From positions 323,110-387,109 of the forward strand of contig CAYJQI010000001.1 of NCBI GenBank assembly GCA_964372485.1: 64,000 nucleotides of DNA, written 5' to 3'. The position numbers and the translations under genes are program-made. The notes below the pieces were generated by a model. The model was given only the letters and a program-made list of their open reading frames with translations, did no database searches and was not told the origin of the DNA. Each line of letters opens with the position of its first letter. Position 1 is the stretch's first letter. Shown here piece after piece: positions 406-19,156 of this stretch. This stretch comes from an uncultured archaeon (lineage in GTDB: Archaea; Aenigmatarchaeota; Aenigmatarchaeia; CG10238-14; SCSR01).

Positions 406-1653
406 ATGAAAATTTCGATCTTGTCAGATTTACACTTTGGATATTCTTATTCAACCGAACTGGATAATGATTCTTTCGATAATGCAGAAGAAGCTATACA
501 GAAATCACTTGATTCAGATATTATAATTCTTGCTGGTGATATTTTTGATATTCGTGCGCCTAAGACACAAACATGGGGGAAGGCCTTGAAGATATTATCA
601 AAACCACTTCTTCAAGAGAGTTCAGGTGTAAGTCTAGTAGAAACAGACAAGCAACTTAAAGACATATCCAAACGGACTTTGAATCATATTCCTGTCATAT
701 CAATTCACGGTAACCATGAACGTCTCGTTAAAGGTGATGTTAATACAGTTGAAGCTTTGGAGAATGCAGGATTGGTTATTCATCTCCATCTCAATACGAT
801 AATTTTTGAAAAAAATGGAACAAAAGTTGCAATACATGGAATGTCCTCAGTTCCTGAAAGATATGCTAAAGAAGTTCTTGATAGATGGAATCCTAAACCT
901 GTAGAAGGCTGTGTTAACATTCTTTTAATTCATCAAAGTATCGATCCTTACATTTATTCTCCCTTAGAACCACCAAGTATCAGTCTTTCGAACCTTCCAA
1001 AAGGATTTGATTTGATAATCAATGGTCATCTTCACGGACACAACGTAGAAAAGATAGATGACAAAACCACTTTGATAATGCCGGGAAGTACGGTGATAAC
1101 ACAATTTGAAAAAAATGAAGCGGTAACAGAAAAAGTAATTGCGCGAGCCATTATTGAGAATAATGTAGTTATAACGGAATTTGTACCTTTAGAAACAAAT
1201 AGGAAATTCTATTACGAGGAACTCGAACTTCAACAATCATCATTAACAGTGAGAGATCAAGTAGAGAGAAAGTTGGCACAGGTCATAGCGATGGCTGGGA
1301 ATAACAAAAAACCTGTGGTCAGATTACGTCTAAAGGGAAACGAATTTAATGTAATGGACAGCGAACTCAGGAATATAGAAAATAAATTCTCCGATAAGGC
1401 AATTTTGATACTTGTAAAGGAATTGGAATCCCAGGAAATTGCAGAGAAACGAGAACTTTTGAAAAGTTTACGTGAACAAAAGATGTCAATTGAAGAAATG
1501 GGACTTAATTTACTGAATAAAAATCTAGAAGAATTTGGAGCTGAGAAATCTATGGACTATGATACTTTATTCCATCTATTAAGCGATGACCAGACGGATA
1601 GTGTATTGAATATTTTACTTGGCGAACAAGCAACGTTGCAAAGATCATTATGA
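406..1653 (+). CDS. mre11: DNA double-strand-break repair nuclease Mre11.
   Basis: Calcineurin-like phosphoesterase motifs (DLHFG, GDIFD, HGNHE, GHLH). Start of rad50 overlaps its end by 4 nt. Confidence 0.9.
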   Translation: MKISILSDLHFGYSYSTELDNDSFDNAEEAIQKSLDSDIIILAGDIFDIRAPKTQTWGKALKILSKPLLQESSGVSLVETDKQLKDISKRTLNHIPVISIHGNHERLVKGDVNTVEALENAGLVIHLHLNTIIFEKNGTKVAIHGMSSVPERYAKEVLDRWNPKPVEGCVNILLIHQSIDPYIYSPLEPPSISLSNLPKGFDLIINGHLHGHNVEKIDDKTTLIMPGSTVITQFEKNEAVTEKVIARAIIENNVVITEFVPLETNRKFYYEELELQQSSLTVRDQVERKLAQVIAMAGNNKKPVVRLRLKGNEFNVMDSELRNIENKFSDKAILILVKELESQEIAEKRELLKSLREQKMSIEEMGLNLLNKNLEEFGAEKSMDYDTLFHLLSDDQTDSVLNILLGEQATLQRSL

Positions 1654-4016
1654 TTACAAAAGTAATATTGAAGAATTGGAGATCGCATCAGAATTCCACA
1701 TTGGGATTTTCTCCAGGAACTAATGCACTCATTGGAATAATGGGTAGCGGAAAAAGTTCAATATTGAATGCGATTTGTTTTGGTCTCTTTGGCACTAATC
1801 CAGAAATACAATCAAGAAAATTAAAACTAGACGAACTAATAACAAACAAACCAACACCTAAAGATCTTGCTGAAATAGAAGTATTTTTCAAAGTTGATGG
1901 AACTGAATATTCTGTGAAAAGAATAATTGAAAAAAGAAAAGGTACGTCATATTCTGAATTGCGAGTAAATGGGAAATTGCAAGAAGCACCTAGTACACAA
2001 AGAGTCAATGAACTTGTGGAAAAAATAATGAAAGTCGATTATGAACTTTTTAGCAAAGCAATCTATTCCGAACAAAACGCAATGGATTATTTCCTAACTA
2101 TTCCTAAAGGTCAACGAATGAGAAAGATCGATGAATTATTGATGATTGACAAATTTGAAAGGGCAAGAAGTAACACAATTTCATTAATAAACAGAATAAT
2201 AGAAAGAAAATCTGCAATGGAATCGTCACTTACGAATGTTAACATGACTGAACTTCAAAATACGATCGATAATCTAAAATCTTCTGTTGAAAATATTGTT
2301 AATGAGAAAGTTCAAATTGAAAAAAATATAAAACAAATCTCTCTTGAAAGAGCAACCTTGGAAAAGGAACTTCAGACTTTCTATAAAACTAAAGACAATT
2401 TTGATACTTTGAAAAGAGAAGAAATAGCTTTCTCAAGTGCAATCAATGAAATAGCATCTACTCTTAAAAAACTGGAGGAGTCATTAAAGGGAGTGAATGG
2501 GGATGATATAGAGAAAAATATAAAATCATTTTCAGATATTTCAACAAAATTAGAACAAACCTTTGCTGAAAGACAGGAAGAATATCATAAACTTGCAGAG
2601 CAATTTTCTAAAGCTAAAGCTGAAGCAGAAATGTACAAAAGAGAAACAATAAGTCGATTACAAAATGAGCTTGAGGAAAAACTTCAATTACAAAGGGATG
2701 CGAACAAATTCAAGAAGCAGATAGGTGGCAGTGTCGACAAGATAATGGAGGAGAAGAAGAAACTAGTTGAAAAGTACGTTGGTAAAATGGAAGCAATGCG
2801 AATTAAAATTGAGGATGCTACGAACATAATAGATCAATTGTCTTCCATAAAAGCAAAATGTCCAATATGTGAAGCAAAAATTACTGAAGCTAGAAAAATA
2901 ATTTTGATCAAGCAAAAGAAAGTTCAAGTTAAGGATTTGTATGAAGAAATGGAACATGCAGCGAAGCAAAAACAAATGAGTGAACAAGATCTCAAGGATC
3001 TTGAAATGTCGATTGTTAAATTAAATAGAATACTGGACGAAATAGAAAATTTGGATGCTATAAAGTCAAATCTGGAAAATGCTGAACATATATACAAAGT
3101 GTTAGAAGAAAGTTCTTTGAAACTAGAGAAGGAAATAAAAACTACACGAATAGATCTTGAAAAAATGTCGAAAACCCTATCAGAAACACGAAGTGAAAAA
3201 CAAAAGTATGATTTGATATCATTACAAATGAAAGATTATGAAACCAAGAAATCCAGAATAAATGAATTGATTAGACAAAGAGATGAAATAAACCGTCATC
3301 TACAAACTTTGGAAAAATTGGTAACAGGAAAAGAATCATCTTCTTTGGAGACAAGTTTGAGGAATCTTGTAGGTCAAGAAAGAGAACTGATGGCTAAATT
3401 AGCTGCTTTAGACCAAATTTTACTAGAAAGAGAAGTACGATTGAAGGAATTGGATTCTACCTTTACCAAAACTACAAAAGAAAGACAGAATATAAAGAAA
3501 TTCGAGGATTTGTCCGTACAATTAAAGATTTTTGAAAAATCACTCGAACAAACACAGATACAATTACGTCAAGAATTCATAACACTCGTCAATTATTCCA
3601 TGTCTCAATTATGGCAGACGCTTTATCCATATCAGGATTTCACAGGAATACGGTTGAATATTGATGAAGGAGATTATGTTTTGCAACTGCAATCACGAAA
3701 TGAATGGGTAAATGTTGAAGGTATTGCATCAGGTGGTGAGAGAAGTATAGCGGCTTTGACATTGAGGATTGCATTTTCCCTAGTTCTGGCGCCTAACCTT
3801 AGGATGATATTCTTGGACGAGCCTACACATAATCTAGATTCCAATGCCGTTGCTATGCTTTCATCTGTATTAAGGGAAAGAATAAATGAATTCATCGATC
3901 AGACATTTCTAATAACACACCAAAGCGAACTGGAGGAAGCTGTTACAGGCATGGCTTATCGATTGGAAAGAGATAAAGTAAATGATGGATATACTCAGAT
4001 CACACAATTAAATTAG
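1650..4016 (+). CDS. rad50: DNA double-strand-break repair ATPase Rad50.
   Basis: Walker A (GSGKSS), long coiled coil with a CPICEAK zinc hook, ABC signature (SGGERS) and Walker B (IFLDEP). Confidence 0.9.
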   Translation: MITKVILKNWRSHQNSTLGFSPGTNALIGIMGSGKSSILNAICFGLFGTNPEIQSRKLKLDELITNKPTPKDLAEIEVFFKVDGTEYSVKRIIEKRKGTSYSELRVNGKLQEAPSTQRVNELVEKIMKVDYELFSKAIYSEQNAMDYFLTIPKGQRMRKIDELLMIDKFERARSNTISLINRIIERKSAMESSLTNVNMTELQNTIDNLKSSVENIVNEKVQIEKNIKQISLERATLEKELQTFYKTKDNFDTLKREEIAFSSAINEIASTLKKLEESLKGVNGDDIEKNIKSFSDISTKLEQTFAERQEEYHKLAEQFSKAKAEAEMYKRETISRLQNELEEKLQLQRDANKFKKQIGGSVDKIMEEKKKLVEKYVGKMEAMRIKIEDATNIIDQLSSIKAKCPICEAKITEARKIILIKQKKVQVKDLYEEMEHAAKQKQMSEQDLKDLEMSIVKLNRILDEIENLDAIKSNLENAEHIYKVLEESSLKLEKEIKTTRIDLEKMSKTLSETRSEKQKYDLISLQMKDYETKKSRINELIRQRDEINRHLQTLEKLVTGKESSSLETSLRNLVGQERELMAKLAALDQILLEREVRLKELDSTFTKTTKERQNIKKFEDLSVQLKIFEKSLEQTQIQLRQEFITLVNYSMSQLWQTLYPYQDFTGIRLNIDEGDYVLQLQSRNEWVNVEGIASGGERSIAALTLRIAFSLVLAPNLRMIFLDEPTHNLDSNAVAMLSSVLRERINEFIDQTFLITHQSELEEAVTGMAYRLERDKVNDGYTQITQLN

Positions 4017-4048
4017 AATTTTATTACCCGGCAAATCAATTTTATTAT

Positions 4049-4444
4049 ATGAAATCTCAGGTCGCTCTAGAGTATCTTATGGTTATTGGGTTGGCATTGA
4101 TCGTTGTAATACCGTTCTTCTATTATGCATTAACGAATTCATCGGATTCCGTTCTTGTAGCTCAAACTCAGGATGTTGTAGATACTTTAGCAAAAACAAG
4201 TGACTATGTTTATTCTTTAGGTACTGGATCATCTACAAAAATTGAGATAACAATACCTGAAAATATTAAACGCAGTGCTTTGGAAGGTCATCTTATCATA
4301 CTCGAATTGCATACTAGTTCTGGTGTTACAAATGTTACGGCTTCTTCACGTGCAAATTTGATTGGCACTATACCGATAGAATCAGCTACATATTCAATAT
4401 TAGTCAATATGACAGGATCAAATGTGGAAATTAAGAAGGTTTAG
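4049..4444 (+). CDS. Pilin-like protein with a class III (type IV prepilin-like) signal peptide.
   Basis: N-terminus MKSQVALEYL followed by a hydrophobic helix (DUF361-like QxxLEY motif). Lies 32 nt after rad50. Confidence 0.6.
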   Translation: MKSQVALEYLMVIGLALIVVIPFFYYALTNSSDSVLVAQTQDVVDTLAKTSDYVYSLGTGSSTKIEITIPENIKRSALEGHLIILELHTSSGVTNVTASSRANLIGTIPIESATYSILVNMTGSNVEIKKV

Positions 4445-4446
4445 TT

Positions 4447-4860
4447 ATGAAAGGTCAGAGTGGATTTGAAGTCCTTATAGCAATCTCTTTAGTTCTGATA
4501 CTTTTAATTTTTTCCATAATAGCATATGTGACAAAACGCGGGGAGGTGGATTTTACACGAGAACATATAGAAGCACAAACAATTTGTTTTGAAATCAAAA
4601 ATGTGATAAATCAAATATTTTCTGATGGACCTGGTGCGAATTTGCCATTGAATGTTTCCAGTAAATTGGAAGATAATGATTTTAACGTGACTGTTAATTC
4701 TCCTAGCCGATCCATATCCGTTGAATGGAAAGGAAATGTATTTTCATGTACGATGGTCGTTCAAAATGTCACTAACAGTACTTTCAGTAAAATTTTCAAT
4801 ATAAAAAGCGGAACGTCGACTATAAAAAATGTTGAGGGAGTTGTTGTAATTGAACCGTAA
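4447..4860 (+). CDS. Pilin-like protein with a class III signal peptide.
   Basis: MKGQSGFEVL followed by a hydrophobic stretch. KG|Q is a PibD/EppA-type cleavage motif. Confidence 0.65.
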   Translation: MKGQSGFEVLIAISLVLILLIFSIIAYVTKRGEVDFTREHIEAQTICFEIKNVINQIFSDGPGANLPLNVSSKLEDNDFNVTVNSPSRSISVEWKGNVFSCTMVVQNVTNSTFSKIFNIKSGTSTIKNVEGVVVIEP

Positions 4861-5353
4861 AGGACAATTTATCACGACAGAACTTTTGGTAACAATGTCA
4901 ATTATAATATTTTTGTTCATTGTTGCTACATTCATGTGGAATACCATATCGGACAAAATTGTTGAAAACAGGGTAAGAAATGAAGTAAGAACTACTGCTA
5001 TAGATGTTTCCGATCAACTTTTAAAATCTAGTGGTGTCCCATCTGATTGGGAAACAAGGCCAGGTCAAAATTTTTCTATAGGACTAGTGGATAGAGACAA
5101 TAAACTAAACATAAATAAGACTTTGGAATTGAAAAAAATGAATTACCCTTCACTCAAAACTTCGCTAGGTGTATCTGCATATGGATTCTATTTTAAAGTT
5201 ACTGACCTTTTTGGAAATATTTTAAGTTATTCTGGAAATAATCTTGATGCCGGTTTAAAACCAACTTCAAATGCTAGTATGATAGTAAATTCCAAACGCC
5301 TAGCAATATGGAACAACAATATAGTTTCTGTGGATGTGGTATTATGGCTATGA
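4850..5353 (+). CDS. Pilin-like protein with a class III signal peptide.
   Basis: MNRKGQFITTELL followed by a TM helix. Overlaps the upstream gene by 11 nt. Confidence 0.6.
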   Translation: MNRKGQFITTELLVTMSIIIFLFIVATFMWNTISDKIVENRVRNEVRTTAIDVSDQLLKSSGVPSDWETRPGQNFSIGLVDRDNKLNINKTLELKKMNYPSLKTSLGVSAYGFYFKVTDLFGNILSYSGNNLDAGLKPTSNASMIVNSKRLAIWNNNIVSVDVVLWL

Positions 5354-6867
5354 GACATGGATTTGTTTTTAGCTTAGATACAGCTCTGGCAATTACGATT
5401 GCAATATTTTTAATTGCAGGAACTTTTTATTTTCTCAATGCCAATGAATCTGATGCGTTCAGTAGGTTATACATGACAAAATTTGCAAATGATCTTCTGA
5501 TAACCGCCGATAAAAATGGAACACTCGAAACATTGAACACGTCTTTCATAAGGAATATGTTATCCAATACGATCGCATCAAATTTTGCTTCTAAAATTAC
5601 AATCGATTCATATCAATGCTTTAATCAACAATGTCAAAATTTCAGCAAGACAAACACTACCATAATGTTCATTCCAACTGCAAAAATAGATGTTGTGCTT
5701 GTGTTTGACACATCGGGAAGTATGGATGATGATGGTATAGAGCAGTCTCCAGGAGTTTGTTTTAATCAACGGCAACCTATTTGTGATGCAAAAGAAGCTG
5801 CAAAAGGCTTTATTGATTTATTAGATCCTGTCAATGACAGATCTGGATTGGTTGCTTTTAATACTACTGCCATATTATCCAACCCTCTTACATATAATCA
5901 TGTGTCAATTAAAAATGGGTTGACAAACCTTGTTGCAAGTGGTAATACGGCTATAGGGGACGGAATAAATGTTGCAAATCAAGAACTTCAAAGTAACGGA
6001 AGACAAGATTCAAAATATTTTATAATACTTTTAACAGATGGTATGAACAATCAGGGGCTAGAACCGCTCATGGCTACCGACGATTCTGTGGATATTGGAG
6101 TTCCAATTTATACTATAGGATTAGGTGAAGATGTGAATGTAGAGCAACTTCAAACTATTGCAAATACTTCAGGAGGAAAATATTACTTTGCACCTACCAG
6201 TGATCAATTGGAAGGTATCTATAATGAAATAGCTGCGGATATTTTCGGAGAAGCTGATAATTATGTTATTGCACGGAGAAGTTTCCTTACTTTCGACAGT
6301 AATCGAATCAAATATTTCAACATTGCTGAAATACGAATGTGGTTGAGAGATATAATAACAGAGTTCCATCCAAAAAGTGTTTTCTATCATAGTTTTGAAG
6401 ATTTAGGTTGTGAGGGCGAAAATTGTTTCAATACTACGGTTTGGGATCCAATAGAAAGAGGTGGTGATAATAATGAAGCTACAACGCAAGATGCTCGTTC
6501 TTACACTGGCGATTTTTCTGCTGAACTGGAGGAAGGCGATGAAGGAGAAGTTGCACTTACCACTGCGGCAGGGTTAATAAATTTGGCTGGTTATTCGAGC
6601 TGTACTCTAAAACTATATGTTAATTTAGACAGTAACTGGGAAACGACTGATGATATTTTCCTAGACATATACGATGGCAGTTGGCACTATGGGGTTCTAA
6701 AAATAGACGGTGACCTGATCGATGATGATGAATGGCATCGTTTCAAGTTTTCCTTCACTTCACAGAACTATGTCTTCGATAACAATTTCCGATTAAGGAT
6801 AGATCATGAAGCGAGTGATGATAACGAAGAAGCATTTTACGATGATATAAGAATATTATGTTCCTAG
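5344..6867 (+). CDS. vWA (MIDAS) domain protein with a pilin-like N-terminus. Putative pilus adhesin.
   Basis: MAMRHG|FVFSLDTALAITIAI pilin-like N-terminus. vWA motifs DVVLVFDTSGSMDDD and LLTDGMNN. The track start at 5308 is probably an over-extension. Confidence 0.65.
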   Translation: MAMRHGFVFSLDTALAITIAIFLIAGTFYFLNANESDAFSRLYMTKFANDLLITADKNGTLETLNTSFIRNMLSNTIASNFASKITIDSYQCFNQQCQNFSKTNTTIMFIPTAKIDVVLVFDTSGSMDDDGIEQSPGVCFNQRQPICDAKEAAKGFIDLLDPVNDRSGLVAFNTTAILSNPLTYNHVSIKNGLTNLVASGNTAIGDGINVANQELQSNGRQDSKYFIILLTDGMNNQGLEPLMATDDSVDIGVPIYTIGLGEDVNVEQLQTIANTSGGKYYFAPTSDQLEGIYNEIAADIFGEADNYVIARRSFLTFDSNRIKYFNIAEIRMWLRDIITEFHPKSVFYHSFEDLGCEGENCFNTTVWDPIERGGDNNEATTQDARSYTGDFSAELEEGDEGEVALTTAAGLINLAGYSSCTLKLYVNLDSNWETTDDIFLDIYDGSWHYGVLKIDGDLIDDDEWHRFKFSFTSQNYVFDNNFRLRIDHEASDDNEEAFYDDIRILCS

Positions 6868-6900
6868 GATCTAATAATAAGCAAATACAATAAATAATTT

Positions 6901-7830
6901 ATGAAGGGAATTGTTTCTACGTTAATTATATTGTTAATTTTCACTGTATCTTTGTTACTTGCAATAAGCTTTTCATCTAAAACATTGGAACTGGATGATA
7001 TAGTAATACGAAATCTTGTGCTGGATAAGGTTTATAATACATTTATTTCAATAGAACATGCCGTTCAAGAATTGATGCTCTTTGTATCCCCAAATGGTGG
7101 AATTAATGTTACTATATCTGATCAAAATAACTTTACAATAGTTACTTTCAATGAAACATTACCACGATATGTAAACTCTTCTAAATTTAATGAAGATTTG
7201 GAGAACTTTGAAAGATTCGCAGAAACGAAACTAAACGAAACAAATATAGCAGTTGATTTAATTCTTGATGCTAAATGCCTTTCCTTCGTTATTCAACCAT
7301 ACAATATAACATATACACATAATCCTGGGATAGATTGTTTGAGTGTAAGTGCTCATACAGAAGTTGTTGTAGATCCACAATCCAGTTGGCAGTATGTGAA
7401 TGGATACTCGTTTATTTTCAGGCCAAATGGTAATTTATCTGGAGCATCTATTACAGGATGGAGCGGTCCAGGTTGCAATAAGCCAGGGTTAGGACTCAAT
7501 ATAACTATCGCAGGTAAAGATATCACATTAGGTCCTTCTGCGACTACCAGCAATTACAATAGAATGTGTAGATACAATATTGATGATATATCATGCCCGG
7601 CTGGATTAGGCTATATTCACCTTATCCATAATCAAAATTCCGACGTTACCGATAATGGTGTAGTAGATATAGAAATTCATCCTAATTGCAACATTACGTC
7701 GGCAGTGTCATTGAATTTGACTAAAACAACAGGAAAGGTAAGCGTAGAGTCACTTTTCCAAAAAATAAAGATAAAGGAAACCCTATATAGAATAGAAAAG
7801 AATGACACAATCCGGAATATTGGTGGTTAG
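6901..7830 (+). CDS. Secreted, sequon-rich protein with a pilin-like N-terminal TM segment.
   Basis: MKG|IVSTLIILLIF N-terminus, many N-x-S/T sequons and six Cys. Confidence 0.45.
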   Translation: MKGIVSTLIILLIFTVSLLLAISFSSKTLELDDIVIRNLVLDKVYNTFISIEHAVQELMLFVSPNGGINVTISDQNNFTIVTFNETLPRYVNSSKFNEDLENFERFAETKLNETNIAVDLILDAKCLSFVIQPYNITYTHNPGIDCLSVSAHTEVVVDPQSSWQYVNGYSFIFRPNGNLSGASITGWSGPGCNKPGLGLNITIAGKDITLGPSATTSNYNRMCRYNIDDISCPAGLGYIHLIHNQNSDVTDNGVVDIEIHPNCNITSAVSLNLTKTTGKVSVESLFQKIKIKETLYRIEKNDTIRNIGG

Positions 7831-8952
7831 TTGAGAACTATAATGGATATTATAAAAGATCTTTTGAATCGACGTCAAAAGCAAGTTGAAATCACACTTT
7901 CAGAGCCAATAGAACCTCCATCACAACCAATTAGAAAAGTTAAGAGAAGGGTTAAACGGGTTAGAAGAACAAAAGCAAAAATAAAAACTACTCGTACAAA
8001 ATCAGTTGTGAAAATTAAACCACCTCGAATAAGCACCGTTGCACCTGAGAAAGAAATTGAAATACCCAAAATTCAAGTTTCTTCAGTAGAGAAATTGCAA
8101 AAAATTCTAGAACAAAGTGATCTATCAACTTCTCCAAAACAAGAAAGTAATGTAATAAAACCTGCTCAAAAAAGTCGGTTTCATCTTAGTTTTCCATCAT
8201 TTCGAAGAATAAACAAATCTAGCGAACAAAAATTGCGATCACCAATTCCACATAAAACTAAAAAAGAATCATTTGTAACAAAAATTCCTACAGAGCATAT
8301 CACAGAAGCTATTGTTGCCGATGTTATGTCACGAGATGTTAGTTCATTAGAACCGAATGATACAATAAGTTACGCGATCAGATTATTTTCAGATAGAAAA
8401 ATAAGTGGTGCCCCAGTGGTGAAAGGTACCAATTTGGTAGGTATGTTGGTTGAATCTGATATAATAAAACTCATAGGAAGCAAGGAACTTTTATTAGGTC
8501 AGGGAAAGGGACTGAAATCTCTCGGGGAGATTAAAGTGGAAGGTGTTATGCATAGAAATCCAATTACTGTGCGTGAGTATACAAAATTATCTGAAGTAGC
8601 GGATTTGATGAATAAATACGGAATCACACAAATACCAGTTTTAGATGAGCGACGAGAATTAACTGGAGTTTTATCACGTAGCGATATAATGCGTGCAGTC
8701 TCCAAGAAATTATTATTCAAGTTATTACAAAAACACGAAGTACAGGAGGTTATGAAAGTAGATACGGATATTGATGAGATTCTTCAAATTGTTGAAAGGA
8801 GAGGATCGATCGGGATGGATGAAATTCAGAAAAGATTAACAATACCTGAAGACAAAATTGAAGAATGGGGTAAGATTCTAGAAAGACATAACTTGATTGA
8901 GATGTTCTATCCCCCTATTGGAAAGCCAGAATTTAGGAAGAAGATATCATGA
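7831..8952 (+). CDS. CBS-pair domain protein with a basic low-complexity N-terminus and a winged-helix-like C-terminus. Putative regulator.
   Basis: K/R-rich repeats (RKVKRRVKRVRRTKAK), two CBS-like modules (VMSRDV ... GAPVV ... GVMHRNPITV ... IPVLD). Its stop overlaps the ATPase start. Confidence 0.7.
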   Translation: MRTIMDIIKDLLNRRQKQVEITLSEPIEPPSQPIRKVKRRVKRVRRTKAKIKTTRTKSVVKIKPPRISTVAPEKEIEIPKIQVSSVEKLQKILEQSDLSTSPKQESNVIKPAQKSRFHLSFPSFRRINKSSEQKLRSPIPHKTKKESFVTKIPTEHITEAIVADVMSRDVSSLEPNDTISYAIRLFSDRKISGAPVVKGTNLVGMLVESDIIKLIGSKELLLGQGKGLKSLGEIKVEGVMHRNPITVREYTKLSEVADLMNKYGITQIPVLDERRELTGVLSRSDIMRAVSKKLLFKLLQKHEVQEVMKVDTDIDEILQIVERRGSIGMDEIQKRLTIPEDKIEEWGKILERHNLIEMFYPPIGKPEFRKKIS

Positions 8953-10481
8953 AGGAAAATGAAGTAATTGCAAAATATTTTATAGAGGGGTATAAGGTTA
9001 AAGCAGAAGTTAGTGTTGAACGAACTATAAAGGAATTTGTTCCATTATATGTTTTGAAACTCCCCGAGATACAGCCAGCCACTTTGGCTTTGATGGATCA
9101 GATAAGAGAAAAGATTTTAGCACAAGCTGCAATTAAGACGACAGAATTATTAGAACCAAAAGCTTTCGAAGACCTCAAAGTAAAATTTTATGAAAGGGCT
9201 TATGAATTAGTTAGCAGAGAATTGGCAAATGAAACTCAAAACGTGTGGCAGTTTCTTGCTGGTATGCTTGTTTATGAGATGTTGGGTTTAGGTAGATTGG
9301 AACTTTTAATTGCTGATGGGGAACTTGAGGATATTGTAATCAACAATGCAGAAGATCCGATATGGGTATATCATAGAAAACATGGATGGCTTAAAACCAA
9401 TGTTGTAGTCCCCTCAGAATCACAAATTCAAAATTATGCTGCAACAATCGGACGAAGAGTTGGTAGACAAATAACTACACTGGCTCCATTGATGGATGCT
9501 CACATGACGACAGGTGATAGGGTTAATGCCACGTTATTCCCTATCAGTACTTCTGGAAATACGATAAGCATACGAAAATTCAGGAGAAAACCATGGGTAA
9601 TTACCGAACTTTTAGAAAGCAACACATTGTCTTTGGATATAGCCGCTTTATTGTGGTTGGCGATTCAGTATGAAAGTAATGTGATTTTCTCAGGTGGAAC
9701 AGGGTCTGGTAAAACAACTTTTCTAAATGTTCTGATGCCATTTATCCCGCCAAATCAAAGAATACTCAGCATAGAAGATACACGAGAGATTCAATTACCA
9801 AGATTCTTGCACTGGGTTCCATTAACAACTAGAGAACCAAACCCTGAGGGTAAAGGTGGAGTTTCAATGTTGGACCTTCTTGTGAATAGCTTGCGTATGA
9901 GGCCAGATAGAATCGTTGTCGGTGAGATTAGAAGAGGTGAACAGGCAGAGGTTTTGTTTGAAGCAATGCATACAGGTCACAGTGTTTATGCAACACTTCA
10001 CGCAGATACAGCAGAGCAAACTTATCGAAGATTGATTAATCCACCAATTAATGTTCCGCAGACATTGTTAGAAGCATTGCATCTTATTGCGGTTGCCTTC
10101 AGAGATAGAAGAAAAGGTATACGTAGAATTTTCCAAATAGCTGAAATTGTTCCGGTAACAAAATGGGAAGAGTACAGTCCACATATTAACGTTTTGTACA
10201 AATGGAATCCTGCAGACGATATAATTAAAAAAGTTAAAGAAAGTGTGCGAGTTTTAGATGAATTGAAACTGCATACAGGAATGACTGATCAAGAATTCCA
10301 AAAGGATTTGATAGAAAAAGCATCCATCTTAAAATGGATGAAGGATAAGAAAATCAATACAGTCGATGGTGTAGGAAAAGTAGTTGTTGAATATTATTTT
10401 GACCCCGATAAAGTTTTGAGTGTTGTTAAAAAGAATGAGAATCCGACAACGCTTGTTCCACCGGCACTGCTTCAGGTGTGA
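8949..10481 (+). CDS. Type IV pilus / secretion ATPase, FlaI/TadA/VirB11 family.
   Basis: Walker A FSGGTGSGKTTFLNV, followed by IEDTREIQL and His-box-like motifs. Confidence 0.85.
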   Translation: MKENEVIAKYFIEGYKVKAEVSVERTIKEFVPLYVLKLPEIQPATLALMDQIREKILAQAAIKTTELLEPKAFEDLKVKFYERAYELVSRELANETQNVWQFLAGMLVYEMLGLGRLELLIADGELEDIVINNAEDPIWVYHRKHGWLKTNVVVPSESQIQNYAATIGRRVGRQITTLAPLMDAHMTTGDRVNATLFPISTSGNTISIRKFRRKPWVITELLESNTLSLDIAALLWLAIQYESNVIFSGGTGSGKTTFLNVLMPFIPPNQRILSIEDTREIQLPRFLHWVPLTTREPNPEGKGGVSMLDLLVNSLRMRPDRIVVGEIRRGEQAEVLFEAMHTGHSVYATLHADTAEQTYRRLINPPINVPQTLLEALHLIAVAFRDRRKGIRRIFQIAEIVPVTKWEEYSPHINVLYKWNPADDIIKKVKESVRVLDELKLHTGMTDQEFQKDLIEKASILKWMKDKKINTVDGVGKVVVEYYFDPDKVLSVVKKNENPTTLVPPALLQV

Positions 10482-11386
10482 ATATGCCTCAACGCCGTAT
10501 ACCATTTGTACTTTTTTCCACTAATAGAATTTTAAATTATTCAAGGAGCCTTGGATTATTTGGTATAGGTAATCGAATTTCAAAATTATTTCCATTCCTT
10601 TCACTTTACTTGTATCAATCAGAATCAACTCATGACGCAGGTGAATATGTTTCTATCGCCCTTTTTTCTGCTATTACATGGTTTATAATTCCATTCTCAT
10701 TCGGAATGTTTCTTTCATTAGTAGCGACACTTCCTTCTAATTTTCCTTTAATTATTACAGCGGTCTCTTTTGCAATGTTTGGATTATCATTTTTGTATAT
10801 AATTTTTTATCCCAGAGTATTTGTTACAAGAAGAACTCGTGAGTTGGAGAAGAATTTGCTATTCGCATTAAGACATTTGATGATTCAGGCAAAATCTGGT
10901 ATACCTCTTTTTGATTCGATGGCATCTGTCGCACGCGCAAATTATGGTTTGGTATCCAAAGAATTCAATGAAGTTGTTCGAAGGATCAGTACAGGAGTAA
11001 GAGATGTAGAGGCGTTGGAAGAATTGGCTTTGAAAAATCCATCATTATACTTCCGACGAGCTCTTTGGCAAGTGTCAAATGCAATTCGAGTCGGAGCTGA
11101 TATAGGAAACACATTGGAAATTATCATACAAAATCTTGCGAATGAACAAAGAATACTTGTAAGAAAATACGGTTCACAACTTAATCCTCTTGCATTTCTT
11201 TACATGATGTTTGGTGTAATAATGCCAAGTTTAGGCATAGCATTGTTGATAATATTATCATCTTTCGCAGGATTGCCAATTAAAAAATATTTCTTCTGGG
11301 CGATTTTGGGATTTCTGGTTATTTTCAAGTTTAACTTTCTTGGAATAGTCAAAAGCAGAAGACCATCGGTGGAAGTTTATGTATAG
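10478..11386 (+). CDS. Pilus platform membrane protein, first half (TadB/FlaJ-like T2SSF domain).
   Basis: Polytopic membrane protein with one T2SSF-like domain. Overlaps the ATPase gene by 4 nt. Confidence 0.7.
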   Translation: MNMPQRRIPFVLFSTNRILNYSRSLGLFGIGNRISKLFPFLSLYLYQSESTHDAGEYVSIALFSAITWFIIPFSFGMFLSLVATLPSNFPLIITAVSFAMFGLSFLYIIFYPRVFVTRRTRELEKNLLFALRHLMIQAKSGIPLFDSMASVARANYGLVSKEFNEVVRRISTGVRDVEALEELALKNPSLYFRRALWQVSNAIRVGADIGNTLEIIIQNLANEQRILVRKYGSQLNPLAFLYMMFGVIMPSLGIALLIILSSFAGLPIKKYFFWAILGFLVIFKFNFLGIVKSRRPSVEVYV

Positions 11387-12362
11387 ATTCTTTTATGCAC
11401 TCAGCCCTGTGAAATACAGGAAGTGGGTTACACAACAACTCAACTATTGTGATTTTTCAGTATCGCCAATAAAATTAATTGGTTTCTTGATAATTTTTGG
11501 TCTGATGGCAGGATTTGCTGCAGGTTTACTTTTGTACGGATTTGGGATTGTCGGATTAATTGGTTTTCTTATTACTTGGATAGCGGTGTTGATGGGTTTT
11601 GAAATATTGAGTCATCTCACTTTGATTTTCGTTGCAGATGGCAGAGCAAATTTCGTAGAACAGATTTTACCGGATGCACTACAGATAGTTTCTGCAAATA
11701 TGCGTTCAGGATTGACTCCAGATAAGGCAATTTTGACATCGGCACGACCGGAATTTGGTCCACTTGAGAAAGAATTGAGAAAAGCAGCAAAGGAGACTTT
11801 ATCGGGTAAATCTTTCGAAGATGCGTTGAAAGGGGTTACTGCAAAAATTAAATCAAAAAGTTTAGATAAGACAATTGCACTTGTTGTTGAAGGATTATCG
11901 AAAGGCGGAAGCATAACAAGTCTATTGGATAGCGTGGCAGATGATATAAGACAGGCTCGAGTGCTCAGAAATGAAATAAAATCATATGTCATGATGTATG
12001 GAATATTTATTTTCTTTGCAGCTGGTGTCGGAGGACCTTTGCTTTACTCTGTTGCAACGTATTTGATACAAACAATGACAACTATTGGGGGCTCTGTTGA
12101 TTTGGGAGATTCTTTGACACAATCTTCAATACCATTGCTTAAATTTGGATCGGCTGAGATAGATGTGGATTTCTTACGAACGTATTCCTATATTGCTATA
12201 GTAGTGACAGCATTTTTTGGTAGTTTGTTGATAGGACTGGTTCAGGAAGGCACTGAAAAAGGTGGTTTGAAGTTTTTCCCGATTCTTCTAGTTGTTGGAT
12301 TGGGCGTTTTTACAGTAACTCAGATCGCTCTAAAAGGTATTTTTGGTACACTTGCGGGATAG
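11379..12362 (+). CDS. Pilus platform membrane protein, second half (TadC/FlaJ-like T2SSF domain).
   Basis: Second T2SSF-like domain with TM helices. Overlaps the previous gene by 8 nt in a different frame. Confidence 0.7.
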   Translation: MYRFFYALSPVKYRKWVTQQLNYCDFSVSPIKLIGFLIIFGLMAGFAAGLLLYGFGIVGLIGFLITWIAVLMGFEILSHLTLIFVADGRANFVEQILPDALQIVSANMRSGLTPDKAILTSARPEFGPLEKELRKAAKETLSGKSFEDALKGVTAKIKSKSLDKTIALVVEGLSKGGSITSLLDSVADDIRQARVLRNEIKSYVMMYGIFIFFAAGVGGPLLYSVATYLIQTMTTIGGSVDLGDSLTQSSIPLLKFGSAEIDVDFLRTYSYIAIVVTAFFGSLLIGLVQEGTEKGGLKFFPILLVVGLGVFTVTQIALKGIFGTLAG

Positions 12363-12388
12363 TGCTTTATAAGGCAGGAAAACGAAAT

Positions 12389-12874
12389 ATGAGTTATATG
12401 TTTAAAATAGTACGAAAAGGCCAAACGGCTTTGGAATACTTGATGACTTACGGGTGGGCTATATTGATAGTAATCATTGCTATCGGTGCCCTTTACGCTT
12501 TAGGACTTACAAAACCATGTAGATGGACAGGAACACAAATAACAGGATTCACAGGTGGTGGATTCGAAGCATCTGTTCCGAGATTTAGTGGAGGTGGCGA
12601 CGATCTAGTATTGGACTTCAAAAGAATCGGAGCCAATTCAGTAAATTTCTATCACGCAAATGCAACGTACAAGACAGCACATATCGACTTGAACTCAACT
12701 GAACCTAATGCGATATTGGCGACAGGCGCAACAAAAACAGTCACATTTGATTTCAATCCTCCAGAAGATTCATCATCCGGTGACTGCTATGCAGTTGATA
12801 TAATACTAGGCTACAGCGAAAGTGGAAGAAATTTCACAGCAGCAGGTCGAGTTAGCGGAACAATTGAAACTTAA
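12389..12874 (+). CDS. Pilin with a class III signal peptide.
   Basis: MSYMFKIVRKG|QTALEYLMTYGWAILIV. The track start at 12362 is a GTG extension. Confidence 0.65.
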   Translation: MSYMFKIVRKGQTALEYLMTYGWAILIVIIAIGALYALGLTKPCRWTGTQITGFTGGGFEASVPRFSGGGDDLVLDFKRIGANSVNFYHANATYKTAHIDLNSTEPNAILATGATKTVTFDFNPPEDSSSGDCYAVDIILGYSESGRNFTAAGRVSGTIET

Positions 12875-12875
12875 A

Positions 12876-14378
12876 TCACATAAAAGTCTCTAAATCAGTA
12901 GCACTAAGATTAGAATCAGCGAAACCCAAAAGTTCGTCTTCAAGATTTTTTCCTTTCCCAATTATTTTACTTTTTCTTTCTCTTACATTAACCAAAATAG
13001 GGTAGTTCACAGCTTCTCCAACAATAAATGCTTCACCAACTTTTAATCCTGGAATTGAACTTAATATACCGCTTGTAATTCCTTCTGAACTTTCTTTTAT
13101 ATGATCGAGGTCGTACGGGTTAGTTACACGCATAATGATGTCGGTATTGCATTGTGAAAGTGCGGTTGTAGCTAATCCGGCAGGTCTTTGTGTTATCAAT
13201 GTTAAACAAGCATTAAACTTTCTACCTTCACGAGCTATTTGTTCGATTATACTTCTAGATAATGCAAGATCATGTTCTTCGCCTTCCGGTGCGAATTGAT
13301 GCGCCTCTTCTACAAATAAAACGAATGGAGATATTTTCTTTTGTCGTCTCGCTTCGAATAATTTCCATGCAAAGTAAGCAACAATTATTTGTTTTCTTTT
13401 AATGTCCACAATATCCGACAAATCAAAAATACTTAGATTTCCTTTGAATGCAAGATCCTTTATCGAAGGATAGTCTCTGTTGGAAAATAATCCTGTATAT
13501 TCAATTTCATGCAACCAAGATGCCAGAACTTCTTTTGTATTGTCTTTAATCTCACTTTTCAATACTGCATCAATAAGATCTTGCATGTTGTATGTAGGTT
13601 TTTCTTCCCTGAGTTTTCTAATCACAGGTCCAAGTTCTCTTCTTTGAACAGCAGAAATTTTTGGCTGTAAAACTGAAAGTTGATATGCAGACAAACTATT
13701 CGTCGATATACTGATTTCATTTGCATTGTAAACTTTGGTGGATAATCTATACTTTTCATCCTGCGCAAATCCACTATATTCACCATGCGGATCCACAATA
13801 ATTACAGACGGCCTTGCATTTCTTTCTCTGTTAAGAAGTTCTTCCAATAAAACTGAAGTTAAATATGATTTTCCTGCACCGGACATTGCAAGTATGGCTA
13901 GATGTTTTTGGAATAGTTTTGTAATATTAATTTTAGCATCGATATTATGAAATTCAACTTTACCAAGATTCAATCCAGAATTAACATCCAATCCCAAAGC
14001 ATTGTTCAATAAAGTTTCATCAATTGGAAATACATCATTCCCAGGTGATGGGGGAAATGTTACTCGTTTTTGCATTCCATTAGAGAAAATTCCTAAAGGA
14101 CGCGCCTGAGCAATTAAATATTCCCATCTATCAACAGGAAATTGATCGATGAGAGGTTTGCCTGAACGTTCAAATTCACTCACAGATTCTGCACGTTGAT
14201 AATAACGGTTGGTTTTTATAATATCTTCCACTCGAGCAACTAGAACTCCATCTTGAGTGTCCAATTGAATAAATTCACCTTTCCTTACAGGCACACCTTT
14301 ATTCTCATTTAGAACGAACCAGAATTCCGTACTGTTTGGGCCTAGCTCAGATGAAATAACTGTGCCAATCTCTCGCAT
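12876..14378 (-). CDS. herA: HerA-like (DUF87) FtsK-superfamily ATPase.
   Basis: N-terminal barrel, Walker A MSGAGKS, IVDPHGEY, Walker B VEEAHQF and a QRPAGL C-terminus. Convergent with the last pilin gene. Confidence 0.75.
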   Translation of the reverse strand: MREIGTVISSELGPNSTEFWFVLNENKGVPVRKGEFIQLDTQDGVLVARVEDIIKTNRYYQRAESVSEFERSGKPLIDQFPVDRWEYLIAQARPLGIFSNGMQKRVTFPPSPGNDVFPIDETLLNNALGLDVNSGLNLGKVEFHNIDAKINITKLFQKHLAILAMSGAGKSYLTSVLLEELLNRERNARPSVIIVDPHGEYSGFAQDEKYRLSTKVYNANEISISTNSLSAYQLSVLQPKISAVQRRELGPVIRKLREEKPTYNMQDLIDAVLKSEIKDNTKEVLASWLHEIEYTGLFSNRDYPSIKDLAFKGNLSIFDLSDIVDIKRKQIIVAYFAWKLFEARRQKKISPFVLFVEEAHQFAPEGEEHDLALSRSIIEQIAREGRKFNACLTLITQRPAGLATTALSQCNTDIIMRVTNPYDLDHIKESSEGITSGILSSIPGLKVGEAFIVGEAVNYPILVNVRERKSKIIGKGKNLEDELLGFADSNLSATDLETFM

Positions 14379-14410
14379 AGTTTTTAAGTTGAATGTAAAA
14401 AGATAAATGT

Positions 14411-15169
14411 ATGGTCATCAAGTTTATCACGAACTACCCAGCGGCTTTAATTACGGATAAGAAGATTCTTGTAATCTCTGATATCCACATAGGACTAGAA
14501 TCGGAACTTGGAAGTGCTGGAGTAAGAATTCATAAGCAAATAGAAAAATTCCAGGAAATCCTTTACAAATTGATCGAATTAACAGATGCAAAAACTTTGG
14601 TAATTTTGGGAGATGTTAAACACAAAGTTCCTGGAGCAACGATGCAAGAATTGAGAGATATACCTAAATTCCTACAAAATCTTTCTTCAAAAGTAAAAGT
14701 TATTATAACAAAAGGAAATCATGACGATTATTTGGAAACAATGGTACCAACTGGAGTTAAAATATACGGGAGCAAAGGATTCAAAATTGGAAAATATGGA
14801 TTTTTTCATGGTCATGCAAAACCTGGTAAGACTCTTCTAAAATGTGATCAACTTTTCATAGGTCATTTGCAGCCTTCAGTGGAATTTAGAGATGGTTTTG
14901 GATATGCTACCCGTCAACAAGTGTGGTTGAAAGGTAAATTAAATCCCGACGTTGTAAAAAAGTTGTACAAAACCAAATCAACTGGAAAAATGAATATAAT
15001 AATTGTTCCTTCTTTCAATTCCATGATCGGAAGTATGAATGTTATATCAACCGAAGATCTGTTAGGACCATTATTAGTGAATGAGATGGTTCAATTGGAT
15101 ACAATGCGTACATATCTTCTTGATGGGACGTATTTGGGATTGTTGAGTTCAATAAAAGAACAAATTTAA
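14411..15169 (+). CDS. Calcineurin-like metallophosphoesterase (Mre11/SbcD-like fold).
   Basis: Motifs SDIHIG, GDVKH, GNHDD and GH. Divergent from herA across a 32-nt gap. Confidence 0.7.
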   Translation: MVIKFITNYPAALITDKKILVISDIHIGLESELGSAGVRIHKQIEKFQEILYKLIELTDAKTLVILGDVKHKVPGATMQELRDIPKFLQNLSSKVKVIITKGNHDDYLETMVPTGVKIYGSKGFKIGKYGFFHGHAKPGKTLLKCDQLFIGHLQPSVEFRDGFGYATRQQVWLKGKLNPDVVKKLYKTKSTGKMNIIIVPSFNSMIGSMNVISTEDLLGPLLVNEMVQLDTMRTYLLDGTYLGLLSSIKEQI

Positions 15170-15183
15170 ACGATAAAACACAA

Positions 15184-16497
15184 ATGGATAGTATGAAATC
15201 TACCTTTTTTGTGTCTTTAGTATTGGTAGTGATGAGTGCATCGATTGTGGGTTTTGCACATGCAGACGAGACTGGTTCAAAAACAGGCACTCTTCGAGAT
15301 TTTGCACAAAAGATAGAACAACTAACTCCAGAACAACAACAAAGGTTGCGAGAATTGACATTGGAGAAAACAAGAAATCTAGGCGAATTAAATACACCTA
15401 CTCTTGAAAAGGTTTCACAACTCAATCCAGATGAATTGGAAAAATTGACTTTATTGGGAAAAAGTAGATTGAATGAACTATCAGCTCTTGACAGGGAGAT
15501 GCTTAAAAAAAGATTGGAAAATATAACTATTGAAAGAGTGACGAAAGAACGATTGTTGGAGAAACGAGATATTCTGCAAGGAAAAATAGAGGAAGCACGA
15601 GAAAAAGTAGATGAGTTGAAGGATAGAATAAAAGATCTGAGATCTGAAATAAATGAGAGCAAGAAAGATCTTCAAGAAATACGAGATGAGTTAAAATCAT
15701 GTAAAAATTCGACTTCTGTAGAATGTAATGAAACGAAATCTAGGGCATTAGAGCACGGAAAGAAAGTAGTTCTTAGAAATATTGATCTTGCAATAGATCA
15801 CCTCAATAAAATCAAAGCTCACATTGAAGGAAATGATGACATTGATGAAACTACAGCGAATGAAGCTATAGCAGATATAGATGCCGCGATTGCAGAACTT
15901 GAAGCCTTGAAACCTAAAGTAGAAGGTGCAACTACACTTGCAGAGTTGCGTGATTTAGCTAAACAAGTAAAAGCTGTTTGGAAAAGAATTGAACATCGCG
16001 CCAGATTACACGCTGCAAATTCAATACTTTCTGATGTAGGAGAAATTTTGAGCAGAGCACGACATCTTGAAAGAAAATTGGAAAGAGTACTTGCCTTCGC
16101 AGACAAACACGGAGTTGATGTTTCTGATTTGAACGGTTCAATTAATGATTTTTCTGATAAAGTAGAGTCAGCACGAGTTAAGATAGAAGAATCTAAATCA
16201 AAATTCAAAGAAGCCAAGGAATTGCGAAATGCATCGAGAGCAGATGGTAATATAACGGACGACGAGTCGTCACAAATTAAATCATTATTGAACGAATCTC
16301 GTGTATTATCAAGGGAAGCACATCAATTGCTGAAAGATGCACACGTTATTTTGAAATCCATCTCTGCAAGTATTCGAGAAAGAATAACAGTGGAAACAGA
16401 AGTTGAAATAAAAGAAGAAGAACTCGTTAATGTGGAAGTTGATTTGAATGCTGAGGTGGGTGAACCAGAAGCAGTAGAAATAAATGAGGGATCATAA
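15184..16497 (+). CDS. Secreted coiled-coil protein.
   Basis: Signal peptide MKSTFFVSLVLVVMSASIVGFAHA. The rest is E/K/L-rich heptad-like sequence. Confidence 0.5.
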   Translation: MDSMKSTFFVSLVLVVMSASIVGFAHADETGSKTGTLRDFAQKIEQLTPEQQQRLRELTLEKTRNLGELNTPTLEKVSQLNPDELEKLTLLGKSRLNELSALDREMLKKRLENITIERVTKERLLEKRDILQGKIEEAREKVDELKDRIKDLRSEINESKKDLQEIRDELKSCKNSTSVECNETKSRALEHGKKVVLRNIDLAIDHLNKIKAHIEGNDDIDETTANEAIADIDAAIAELEALKPKVEGATTLAELRDLAKQVKAVWKRIEHRARLHAANSILSDVGEILSRARHLERKLERVLAFADKHGVDVSDLNGSINDFSDKVESARVKIEESKSKFKEAKELRNASRADGNITDDESSQIKSLLNESRVLSREAHQLLKDAHVILKSISASIRERITVETEVEIKEEELVNVEVDLNAEVGEPEAVEINEGS

Positions 16498-16720
16498 AAT
16501 GAAAAATAAAATATTGATATTGTTGATTGGTATTTCAGTATTTCTTGCTGGATGTACTAAGGCTCCGGCAGAACAAGATGTAATTACAGGAAATGTTCCT
16601 CTTGTAGATACAACACAACAAAGCATAACTGACACAGACATTGCCGATTCTGATTTGGGCGACGAAGAAGTTCAACAGATTTCATCGGATATGGATGAAC
16701 TTGATGAAATTTTAAGTTAG
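16484..16720 (+). CDS. Small acidic lipoprotein.
   Basis: Lipobox LAGC after a hydrophobic leader, with a D/E-rich tail. Confidence 0.4.
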   Translation: MRDHKMKNKILILLIGISVFLAGCTKAPAEQDVITGNVPLVDTTQQSITDTDIADSDLGDEEVQQISSDMDELDEILS

Positions 16721-18502: not shown

Positions 18503-18542
18503 GCTTATCAGTTTTTATTCACATTTAATAATTAGTGATTTT

Positions 18543-18989
18543 GTGGCATTGACTCTCCAAGAAGTAATCCCGCTGGGTTTGTGTATGGCTACTCAGGATC
18601 TTATAGACACACGAAGATTTCAACAAAATTTTGCTGATAACCTGCTTTTAAGAGGACGCGATAAAGTGCTTGGAAGTAAACTAGTTCCGATAAAGAGAGA
18701 GTTGAATTCTTCAAATCTTCAAAAAAAGTACATAGAGGGTCATAAAATTGCCATTGTGAGTAACCTTGATAAGATAATTGCAATTGTTGCATCCCGTTAT
18801 TCGGAAATAGATTTGAATCTAGTTGACTCGATAGCATATAATGGAAGGCTTATTATAGAAAAAGTCCTGGAAGCAGAATCATTCGATAAAATAGCAGAAT
18901 TAGATTCTACATTCAAAACAAAAATAACTTTACCTGTATATGATTTATTTATTCGACATATGAAGAAATCGCGCATTTCAATGATTTGA
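18543..18989 (+). CDS. Hypothetical protein.
   Basis: ORF with a GTG start. No recognisable motif. Confidence 0.3.
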   Translation: MALTLQEVIPLGLCMATQDLIDTRRFQQNFADNLLLRGRDKVLGSKLVPIKRELNSSNLQKKYIEGHKIAIVSNLDKIIAIVASRYSEIDLNLVDSIAYNGRLIIEKVLEAESFDKIAELDSTFKTKITLPVYDLFIRHMKKSRISMI

Positions 18990-19154: not shown

Positions 19155-19156
19155 TC

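Follow-up and report, generated by a model that had tools for sequence, protein, structure and literature searches.

Does a type IV pilus (T4P) locus lying among genes of DNA double-strand break (DSB) repair reflect a partnership between pilus and repair, or a chance encounter of two sets of genes? The question is raised by a 64-kb stretch of DNA from an uncultured archaeon, tiny and symbiotic (contig CAYJQI010000001.1), hereafter called the window, in which mre11 and rad50 are followed by a 32-nt spacer, ten pilus genes, a single nucleotide and a convergent herA gene. The named relatives of the pilus ATPase and of Rad50 encoded here, drawn from thousands and hundreds of relatives, respectively, belong to the Aenigmarchaeota (DPANN). 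A preliminary description of the locus had proposed that the repair genes and the pilus are co-transcribed and functionally coupled, in the manner of the Ups pili and Ced DNA import of Sulfolobus. We favour a different explanation, to which we assign a probability of roughly 80%: two unrelated units have been made neighbours by rearrangement, and there is no partnership between repair and pilus. One unit would be the DSB-repair block of Aenigmarchaeota, comprising mre11-rad50, a convergent herA, a divergent phosphoesterase gene and aIF5B. The other would be an autonomous pilus operon encoding five pilin-like proteins, a CBS-domain protein, an ATPase, two platform proteins and a final pilin; this 8.9-kb operon with its upstream spacer (4017-12875) would occupy the convergent rad50/herA junction in the lineage of the window.

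Gene identification was based on Pfam and NCBIfam profile searches. The stop codon of rad50 (TAG) is located at 4014-4016, and exactly 32 nt (4017-4048) separate it from the ATG of the first pilin gene. The ten pilus genes (4049-12874, plus strand) have the same orientation as rad50 and are joined by overlaps or gaps of no more than 33 nt in the open reading frame (ORF) listing. The stop codon of the last pilin gene ends at 12874 and the herA ORF, encoded on the minus strand, ends at 12876, leaving 1 nt between them. Beyond herA there is a 32-nt divergent spacer, the gene of a 252-aa phosphoesterase (14411-15169), a gene for a secreted coiled-coil protein and aIF5B. The two short distances given in the preliminary description (rad50 to pilin and last pilin to herA) were confirmed, together with the underlying coordinates and gene identities.

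The sequence comes from assemblies of uncultured organisms, two of which break ∼1.1 kb upstream of mre11, and an assembly or binning chimera was therefore considered as the source of the juxtaposition. However, the junction of rad50 with the first pilin gene is present in two independent assemblies of one strain, obtained from different read sets (L173, ERR3478686; L174, ERR4904391), and the full gene order recurs in two other genomes (L081, and L082 with its twin L083). Base composition is also even over both junctions, rad50-pilin and pilin-herA. Since two independent assemblies and two related genomes carry it, the junction is not an assembly artefact, and the chimera was rejected as having a negligible chance of being correct. 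The common end point of L173 and L174, which represent the strain of the window, hints at a repeat or a strain-variable region upstream of mre11.

To place the arrangement in context, 80 metagenome loci around relatives of Rad50 were retrieved, and the 55 loci with at least 3 kb of sequence downstream of rad50 were counted. A widespread block is made up of mre11-rad50, a convergent herA, the gene of the 252-aa phosphoesterase and aIF5B on the opposite strand. The convergent herA is found within 6 kb of rad50 in 17 of the 55 loci and abuts it in 5, and in none of the 55 is rad50 followed by pilin genes. Among the close relatives, whose Rad50 is 63-75% identical to that of the window over 452 shared columns, L104, L169 and L171 have an empty rad50/herA junction, with the two stop codons 0-14 nt apart, and the two genes also abut in distant relatives such as L091, L102 and L114. 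Elsewhere the junction is filled with a PP2C-like gene (L089, 3019-3813; L170, 12382-13194, where herA has been lost) or with purD (L172, 12399-13751). A pilus operon occupies it in three of nine close-relative genomes, and among related genomes this state is shared only by L081 and L082/L083. Because the content of the junction varies in this way, the pilus operon is best described as an insertion into an ancestrally empty junction that also accepts other cargo. The earlier wording that the pilus locus is wedged between the repair genes is thus apt, as rad50 and herA abut in relatives that lack the operon.

Neighbour-joining trees were constructed for Rad50, Mre11, HerA and the phosphoesterase, and in none of them did the three carriers of the insertion form an exclusive group. 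The nearest neighbour of L081 in the Rad50 and phosphoesterase trees was L170, which has no pilus operon. It should be noted that these trees are short and unsupported and show only that the state of the junction differs between near neighbours; for this reason, gains and losses were not counted. The adjacency of rad50 and the pilus operon is not above what chance rearrangement would give.

The surroundings of the pilus operon in other genomes point in the same direction. The order mre11, rad50, pilus operon, convergent herA, phosphoesterase is found in L081 (ATPase 83% identical to that of the window) and in L082/L083 (77%). Orthologous operons are located behind a ParA-like gene and one small ORF in L084/L085 (ATPase 74%), behind the genes for MCM, an OB-fold protein and aIF2-beta in L087 (71%), and behind the Lhr helicase gene in L088 (65%). 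As they sit behind ParA-like, aIF2-beta or Lhr genes, the pilus operon moves as a block. In a wider control, genome contigs were scanned by alignment of the ATPase, and the matches listed comprise distant DPANN loci only (≤57% identity). Among the ∼60 other DPANN loci in these listed matches, none carries Mre11 or Rad50 genes next to the pilus module; the lone exception to the lack of repair-type neighbours is L003, with a distant DUF87/HerA-like ORF 7.5 kb upstream. Recurrent Lhr, MCM, RFC or ParA neighbours were likewise not observed among the listed matches, in which there is only lineage-specific synteny, with MCM present in three Micrarchaeota loci. The conservation of the arrangement in relatives, raised in the preliminary description, was accordingly found in part: L081 and L082/L083 retain the order, but it is absent from all 55 of the Rad50-centred loci and from six close relatives.

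Archaeal promoters are composed of a TATA box, accompanied by a B recognition element (BRE), ∼25-30 nt upstream of the transcript start. The spacer between rad50 and the first pilin gene (4017-4048, plus strand) contains TTTTATTA, a predicted TATA box, at 4019-4026, that is, at -30 to -23 from the pilin ATG. A T/A box is found at the same distance in L081, L082, L087 and L088, where the upstream genes differ (rad50, aIF2-beta or Lhr). In a set of 20 DPANN loci, an A/T run covers approximately -30 to -24 in 17, and the A+T fraction peaks at 0.87 in positions -30 to -26, compared to roughly 0.61-0.77 in the other five-position bins. Compact spacers are typical of this genome: herA and the phosphoesterase gene form a divergent pair with 32 nt between them, and other divergent pairs share 27-40 nt, which indicates that spacers of such size carry promoters here.

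The translation signals are consistent with this prediction. The first pilin gene has no Shine-Dalgarno (SD) sequence, the calculated anti-SD duplex having an energy of -1.3 kcal/mol, compared to -4.3 to -9.8 kcal/mol for internal pilus genes. By our own reading of the duplex table, an SD sequence is also lacking in 19 of 23 first genes situated behind spacers of 25-66 nt, and short-spacer first genes in this genome are probably leaderless. In archaea, first genes of transcription units are usually leaderless while internal genes are SD-led, and because the pilus operon fits this pattern, its first pilin gene looks like the head of a unit of its own. Further promoters may exist within the operon. 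A second box, TTTATAAG, at 12366-12373 (-32 to -25 from the ATG of the last pilin gene) suggests that the last pilin may have its own promoter, and an internal promoter is possible in the 33-nt spacer ahead of the gene starting at 6901, which contains TAATAATA. A scan for sigma-70 promoters and hairpin terminators was also tried; it is of bacterial design, returned no more sites than in shuffled sequence, and was not used.

The co-transcription of mre11-rad50 and the pilus genes suggested earlier is thus not borne out by the predicted signals, namely the conserved A/T box at -30 to -23, the lack of an SD sequence on the first pilin gene and a spacer of the length typical for promoters. The same proposal had named a promoter or a terminator between rad50 and the pilins as the feature that would separate the two units; a promoter-like box is present, but no terminator is evident.

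Several observations weigh against the explanation that we favour. There is no evident rad50 terminator in the 32-nt spacer, which holds only two T4 runs, and read-through from rad50 into the pilin genes is possible. Spacers in a genome of 35% G+C are A/T-rich in any case. A Gibbs search on the other short-spacer genes of the window returned the motif ATnTTTAA, usually 25-33 nt upstream of the starts, and this motif scores the box at 4019-4026 poorly (the best score, 3.9 bits, lies elsewhere); the promoter call is for that reason founded on positional conservation across loci, and the pilin promoter is a prediction. The insertion has persisted in three lineages with Rad50 only ∼70-79% identical and is therefore not very recent. 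L130/L131 have rad50 followed by a nucleotidyltransferase gene and then by CBS, ATPase and TadB genes, 1 kb downstream of rad50, and in L127 pilus assembly genes are located ∼6 kb downstream of rad50. Many relatives have a second, distinct T4P-like locus, encoded on the strand of mre11 and located ∼6 kb upstream of it. Finally, no A24-type prepilin peptidase was matched among the 68 ORFs scanned in the window. The points that favour a link (the persistence of the insertion, the T4P genes near rad50, the second locus and the example of the Ups neighbourhood) are post hoc, and they may derive from a single ancestral neighbourhood whose genes were rearranged locally as these very small genomes evolved.

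The second T4P-like locus is found in L169 (1-4238), L170 (1-4246) and L171 (1-3209), as well as in L097, L099, L105, L106, L112, L114 and L127. Its genes encode a T2SSE ATPase that is long (774-836 aa), two T2SSF proteins and two further proteins of 173 aa and 450 aa. The genes for aCPSF1, a proteasome subunit and ProRS lie between this locus and mre11.

These observations bear on two related explanations in which pilus and repair are connected. According to one, mre11-rad50 and the pilus genes form a single transcription unit or regulon and the pilus serves DNA exchange or uptake for repair, as in the Ups/Ced system. In its favour, the genes share one strand, are only 32 nt apart and have no obvious terminator between them; L081 and L082 retain the order; in other Aenigmarchaeota, pilus operons lie behind Lhr (L088) or near MCM/RFC (L087); assembly genes follow 1 kb downstream of rad50 in L130; and there is the precedent of the ups neighbourhood with its helicase and endonuclease genes (bioRxiv 10.64898/2026.04.22.720090). 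Nevertheless, the order is missing from all 55 Rad50-centred loci and from the six close relatives, the promoter-like box is conserved and the first pilin gene has no SD sequence, and the ∼60 wider DPANN pilus loci among the matches listed are devoid of repair-gene neighbours. There is no membrane ATPase or channel of the Ced type, and the soluble HerA stays with rad50 where the pilus is absent. The remaining genes of the window encode mostly aminoacyl-tRNA synthetases, exosome and RNase P subunits, ribosomal proteins and initiation factors. Information-processing neighbours are thus the norm in this genome, and neighbours of the kind seen here are expected by chance. Taken together, we regard a common transcription unit or regulon as improbable.

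The comparison with the Ups/Ced system of Sulfolobales leads to a similar assessment. In both cases, a type IV pilus locus adjoins DNA-processing genes. Throughout the order, the Ups locus keeps its neighbourhood of DNA-processing genes, and damage induces both the Ups and the Ced genes (PMC11868833; bioRxiv 10.64898/2026.04.22.720090), whereas the linkage in the window is patchy even among close relatives. Moreover, the pilus of the window has the hallmark of system 1 (two platform genes after the ATPase gene), unlike Ups, which has been assigned to subsystem 4G/4I. Components of the CedA, CedB or CedD type are not present, HerA being the Ced-like candidate that was tested. According to the other explanation, the proximity of pilus and mre11-rad50 genes in Aenigmarchaeota is non-accidental: the pilus of these host-dependent cells would take up DNA, to be processed by Mre11-Rad50-HerA and the phosphoesterase, as a DPANN counterpart of Ups/Ced made from unrelated parts and partly co-expressed by rad50 read-through. 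It builds on three configurations, i.e. insertion between rad50 and herA (window, L081, L082), location downstream of rad50 (L130/L131, L127) and the second locus upstream of mre11. We consider this highly doubtful. The Ups/Ced-like coupling put forward in the preliminary description finds no support, given that the order is missing in most relatives, that Ced-type components are lacking and that HerA is soluble.

The herA gene (12876-14378, minus strand, convergent with the pilus operon) encodes a 500-aa protein with a DUF87 domain (Pfam, 1.4e-29) and a HAS-barrel. Its best NCBIfam matches are the HerA models of DSB repair (1.9e-46 and 1e-39, below their cut-offs), and it matches HerA chains in the PDB, including 4d2i at 2.9e-29. 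The protein could alternatively be part of a pilus or DNA-transfer machine, i.e. a translocase resembling CedB, CedD or VirB4, with no role in DSB repair. The distance of 1 nt between this gene and the last pilin gene is compatible with this, as are weaker NCBIfam scores with CedD (2e-26), VirB4 (5e-12) and CedB (1e-3). CedB and CedD both have a VirB4-like N-terminal domain; CedD was described with a transmembrane (TM) domain, and approximately every second CedB/CedD/VirB4 protein has TM helices (PMC11868833). However, no TM segment was predicted in HerA of the window, the HerA models of DSB repair score best and the HAS-barrel is present. Furthermore, in genomes that lack the pilus operon, rad50 is directly adjoined by herA orthologues with 78-86% identity, and pilus operons at other sites have no adjoining herA. 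The translocase alternative was therefore rejected as very unlikely. Judged by its domains and the lack of a predicted TM segment, the protein is a soluble HAS-barrel HerA and not a membrane-anchored ATPase of the CedB/CedD type.

In three loci herA is much longer, ∼840 aa compared to 500 aa in the window (L081, 14020-16542; L172, 13744-16263; L126, 2868-5435), which points to an intein or some other sizeable insert within herA. L081 also carries, between herA and the phosphoesterase gene (16647-20198), another Mre11/Rad50-like pair of 375 and 807 aa, whose relationship is very distant (E = 1e-16 for Rad50), and in L172 cas1-cas2-cas4 adjoin herA (16357-18209).

The other members of the repair block were readily recognized. 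The mre11 gene (406-1653, plus strand), the first of the mre11-rad50 unit, is preceded by a 66-nt divergent spacer and encodes a 415-aa protein with a Metallophos domain (Pfam, 2e-12); NCBIfam mre11 models match it at 7e-20 to 2e-10, all under their equivalog cut-offs. The rad50 gene (1650-4016, plus strand) overlaps mre11 by 4 nt. Its product of 788 aa matches the Pfam families SMC_N, SbcC_Walker_B and Rad50_zn_hook, contains the hook motif CPICE and is hit by the NCBIfam Rad50 model at 1.6e-52, under the cut-off. An Mre11 match is located directly upstream of rad50 in ∼70 of the 80 Rad50-centred loci, several contigs starting inside or just before rad50. The SbcD-related phosphoesterase gene (14411-15169, plus strand, 252 aa) is divergent from herA across a 32-nt spacer. 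The protein has a Metallophos domain (Pfam) and matches TIGR00024 at 6.4e-31 (107.8 bits, compared to a cut-off of 115.2) and PdeM at 6.8e-17 (NCBIfam). Its gene lies downstream of rad50 or herA in 39 of the 55 loci, directly after rad50 in 15. In these archaea (the window and L090-L162), the 252-aa phosphoesterase is the most constant neighbour of mre11-rad50.

The preliminary description had invoked the canonical archaeal operon herA-mre11-rad50-nurA, known from Sulfolobus and Pyrococcus. The repair block shares with it Mre11, a zinc-hook Rad50 and a HAS-barrel HerA encoded in a cluster. It differs in that herA is convergent and not co-oriented, both in the window and in relatives, and in that 8.9 kb of pilus genes lie between rad50 and herA in the window. 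In addition, no match to NurA was obtained in domain scans of the ORFs of the 64-kb window, the fourth neighbour being the TIGR00024/PdeM-like phosphoesterase. The canonical order is consequently not the layout of this lineage. The phosphoesterase, encoded where NurA would be expected, may replace NurA as the nuclease partner of HerA or Mre11-Rad50.

The Epd pilus of Methanococcus maripaludis is an archaeal relative of the bacterial Tad pilus. By its gene content, the pilus locus of the window is a type IV pilus operon of the Epd/Tad-like 'system 1', hence of a known family to which it adds a member, and it adjoins a version of a known repair cluster that is typical of the lineage; the assignment to system 1 follows from the combination of a T2SSE ATPase gene, two T2SSF genes and class III-type pilins. 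An ATPase gene followed by two platform genes, together with many pilins, is the hallmark of system 1 among archaeal type IV filaments (bioRxiv 10.64898/2026.04.22.720090), and Epd-like systems 1 have been reported in methanogens and DPANN (bioRxiv 10.64898/2026.04.22.720090; Makarova et al. 2016, PMC4858521). The window shares with the Epd pilus the FlaI/PilB-type ATPase gene followed by two platform genes, several class III pilin-like genes, most with Gln at +1, and accessory genes of the adhesin type. Unlike in the Epd system, the assembly genes and six pilin-like genes form one compact operon, a CBS protein is encoded at a fixed place directly upstream of the ATPase gene and one pilin-like N-terminus is joined to a VWA domain; furthermore, the window has no prepilin peptidase that could be found, and its pilins are unrecognized by Pfam and NCBIfam.

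In six of the ten proteins, the N-terminus is short and basic, with Gly or Ser at -1, usually after Lys, and mostly Gln at +1, and is followed by a single N-terminal hydrophobic helix. Archaeal pilins have class III signal peptides with this pattern of a basic stretch, Gly/Ser, Gln and a hydrophobic helix; none of the pilin-like proteins matches a pilin model of Pfam or NCBIfam, and they were assigned to this class by motif. All ten genes are encoded on the plus strand. Pilin-like protein 1 (4049-4444; 131 aa, MKSQVALEYL...) has a class III-like N-terminus with one N-terminal hydrophobic helix, and its homologues head the pilus locus in many DPANN loci. Pilin-like protein 2 (4447-4860; 137 aa, MKGQSGFEVL...) and pilin-like protein 3 (4850-5353; 167 aa, MNRKGQFITTELL...) also have class III-like N-termini, and their genes are preceded by an SD-like AAGG (duplex -4.3 kcal/mol) and by the SD sequence GAGGGAG (-7.3 kcal/mol), respectively.

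The fourth gene (5308-6867) encodes a 519-aa pilin-like protein with an N-terminal helix, a VWA domain (Pfam, 5.6e-20) and the sequence DTSGS, a metal ion-dependent adhesion site (MIDAS) motif (DxSxS). Its true start is likely near 5344 (MAMRHGFVFSLDTALA...), and the protein is a probable tip adhesin. The VWA domain is also present in the orthologues of L087 and L088, while those of L081 (7556-7996) and L082 (7526-7963) are only ∼145 aa in length and have none; the gene of the window also has a long C-terminal extension. Since the VWA domain is missing in the closest pilus-carrying relatives and present in L087 and L088, the adhesin part appears to be modular. The next gene (6901-7830) encodes a 309-aa protein with a class III-like N-terminus (MKGIVSTLIILL...) and is conserved in L081-L088.

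The sixth gene (7831-8952), preceded by the SD sequence GGTGG (duplex -9.8 kcal/mol), encodes a protein with two CBS domains (Pfam, 5.7e-29), an N-terminus rich in Lys/Arg and a small helical domain at the C-terminus. A CBS homologue is encoded directly upstream of the ATPase gene in L081-L088 and in at least 12 DPANN loci (L002, L004, L005, L010, L012, L018, L021, L030, L053, L056, L058 and L060), and the protein appears to be an accessory or regulatory subunit that is a fixed part of pili of this kind. The pilus assembly ATPase of the FlaI/PilB/TadA family (8949-10481; 510 aa) has a T2SSE domain (Pfam, 8.9e-37) and matches the NCBIfam models for FlaI (4e-83) and the TadA family (5e-61), both under the equivalog cut-offs. 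It is followed by platform protein 1, TadB-like (10478-11386; Pfam T2SSF, 2e-16), and platform protein 2, TadC-like (11379-12362; T2SSF, 2e-15).

The last pilin gene (12398-12874) encodes, from the ATG at 12398, a 158-aa protein (MFKIVRKGQTALEYLMTYGWA...) with an N-terminal helix, which is a candidate for the major pilin. Many DPANN loci have a homologue after TadC, in some cases encoded on the other strand. A single-sequence AlphaFold2 model of this protein, of low confidence (predicted local distance difference test score 63.5), comprises a helix at residues 6-34 and seven strands forming a beta domain. When this low-confidence model was compared with the PDB using Foldseek, there was no match at E ≤ 1e-3, and the archaeal pilins 8fk7 and 8q30 appeared at 5e-3 to 7e-3; PDB sequence searches with two of the pilins gave nothing meaningful. 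In L082, a cassette with genes for an HNH endonuclease, an N6/N4 methyltransferase and MazE (13753-15306) is located inside the pilus locus, before the last pilin gene, and L172 has a comparable HNH-methyltransferase pair at a different site (5341-6565).

Starting from what was observed, namely what the genes are, that the operon is inserted and how patchily this state is distributed, we infer how the operon would be expressed and used, from promoter and leaderless transcript to pilus assembly and function. Transcription would most likely proceed from its own TATA box at 4019-4026, giving an mRNA that is leaderless or has a very short leader and starts at or near the ATG at 4049; additional transcripts may begin ahead of 6901 and 12398. 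If the system works like the archaeal pili that have been characterised, a prepilin peptidase encoded at another site would cleave the prepilins, and the ATPase and platform would then polymerise the pilins into a filament that most plausibly attaches the DPANN cell to a host or a surface.

A few other features of the window were recorded. The only Rfam match in the 64 kb is a tRNA (45021-45080, plus strand; model positions 8-63 of 71, 35 bits), whose gene may be interrupted or atypical. A 607-aa protein in which a T2SSE-like ATPase core is combined with PIN and KH domains is encoded at 23968-25791 (minus strand), and a KaiC-like ATPase followed by two small proteins that match no family at 39317-40952 (minus strand).

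A link between pilus and repair at this locus, if true, would mean a DNA-exchange and repair system in DPANN archaea and a second example of the principle known from Ups/Ced of Sulfolobus. The evidence points instead to a mobile, self-contained pilus operon in a convergent junction that takes other insertions. The analysis has also yielded a map of the DSB-repair block of Aenigmarchaeota, with a phosphoesterase at the place expected for NurA, and sequence evidence for short-spacer first genes that look leaderless. In addition, it describes a conserved pilus operon of DPANN archaea with a fixed CBS accessory gene and a modular VWA adhesin.

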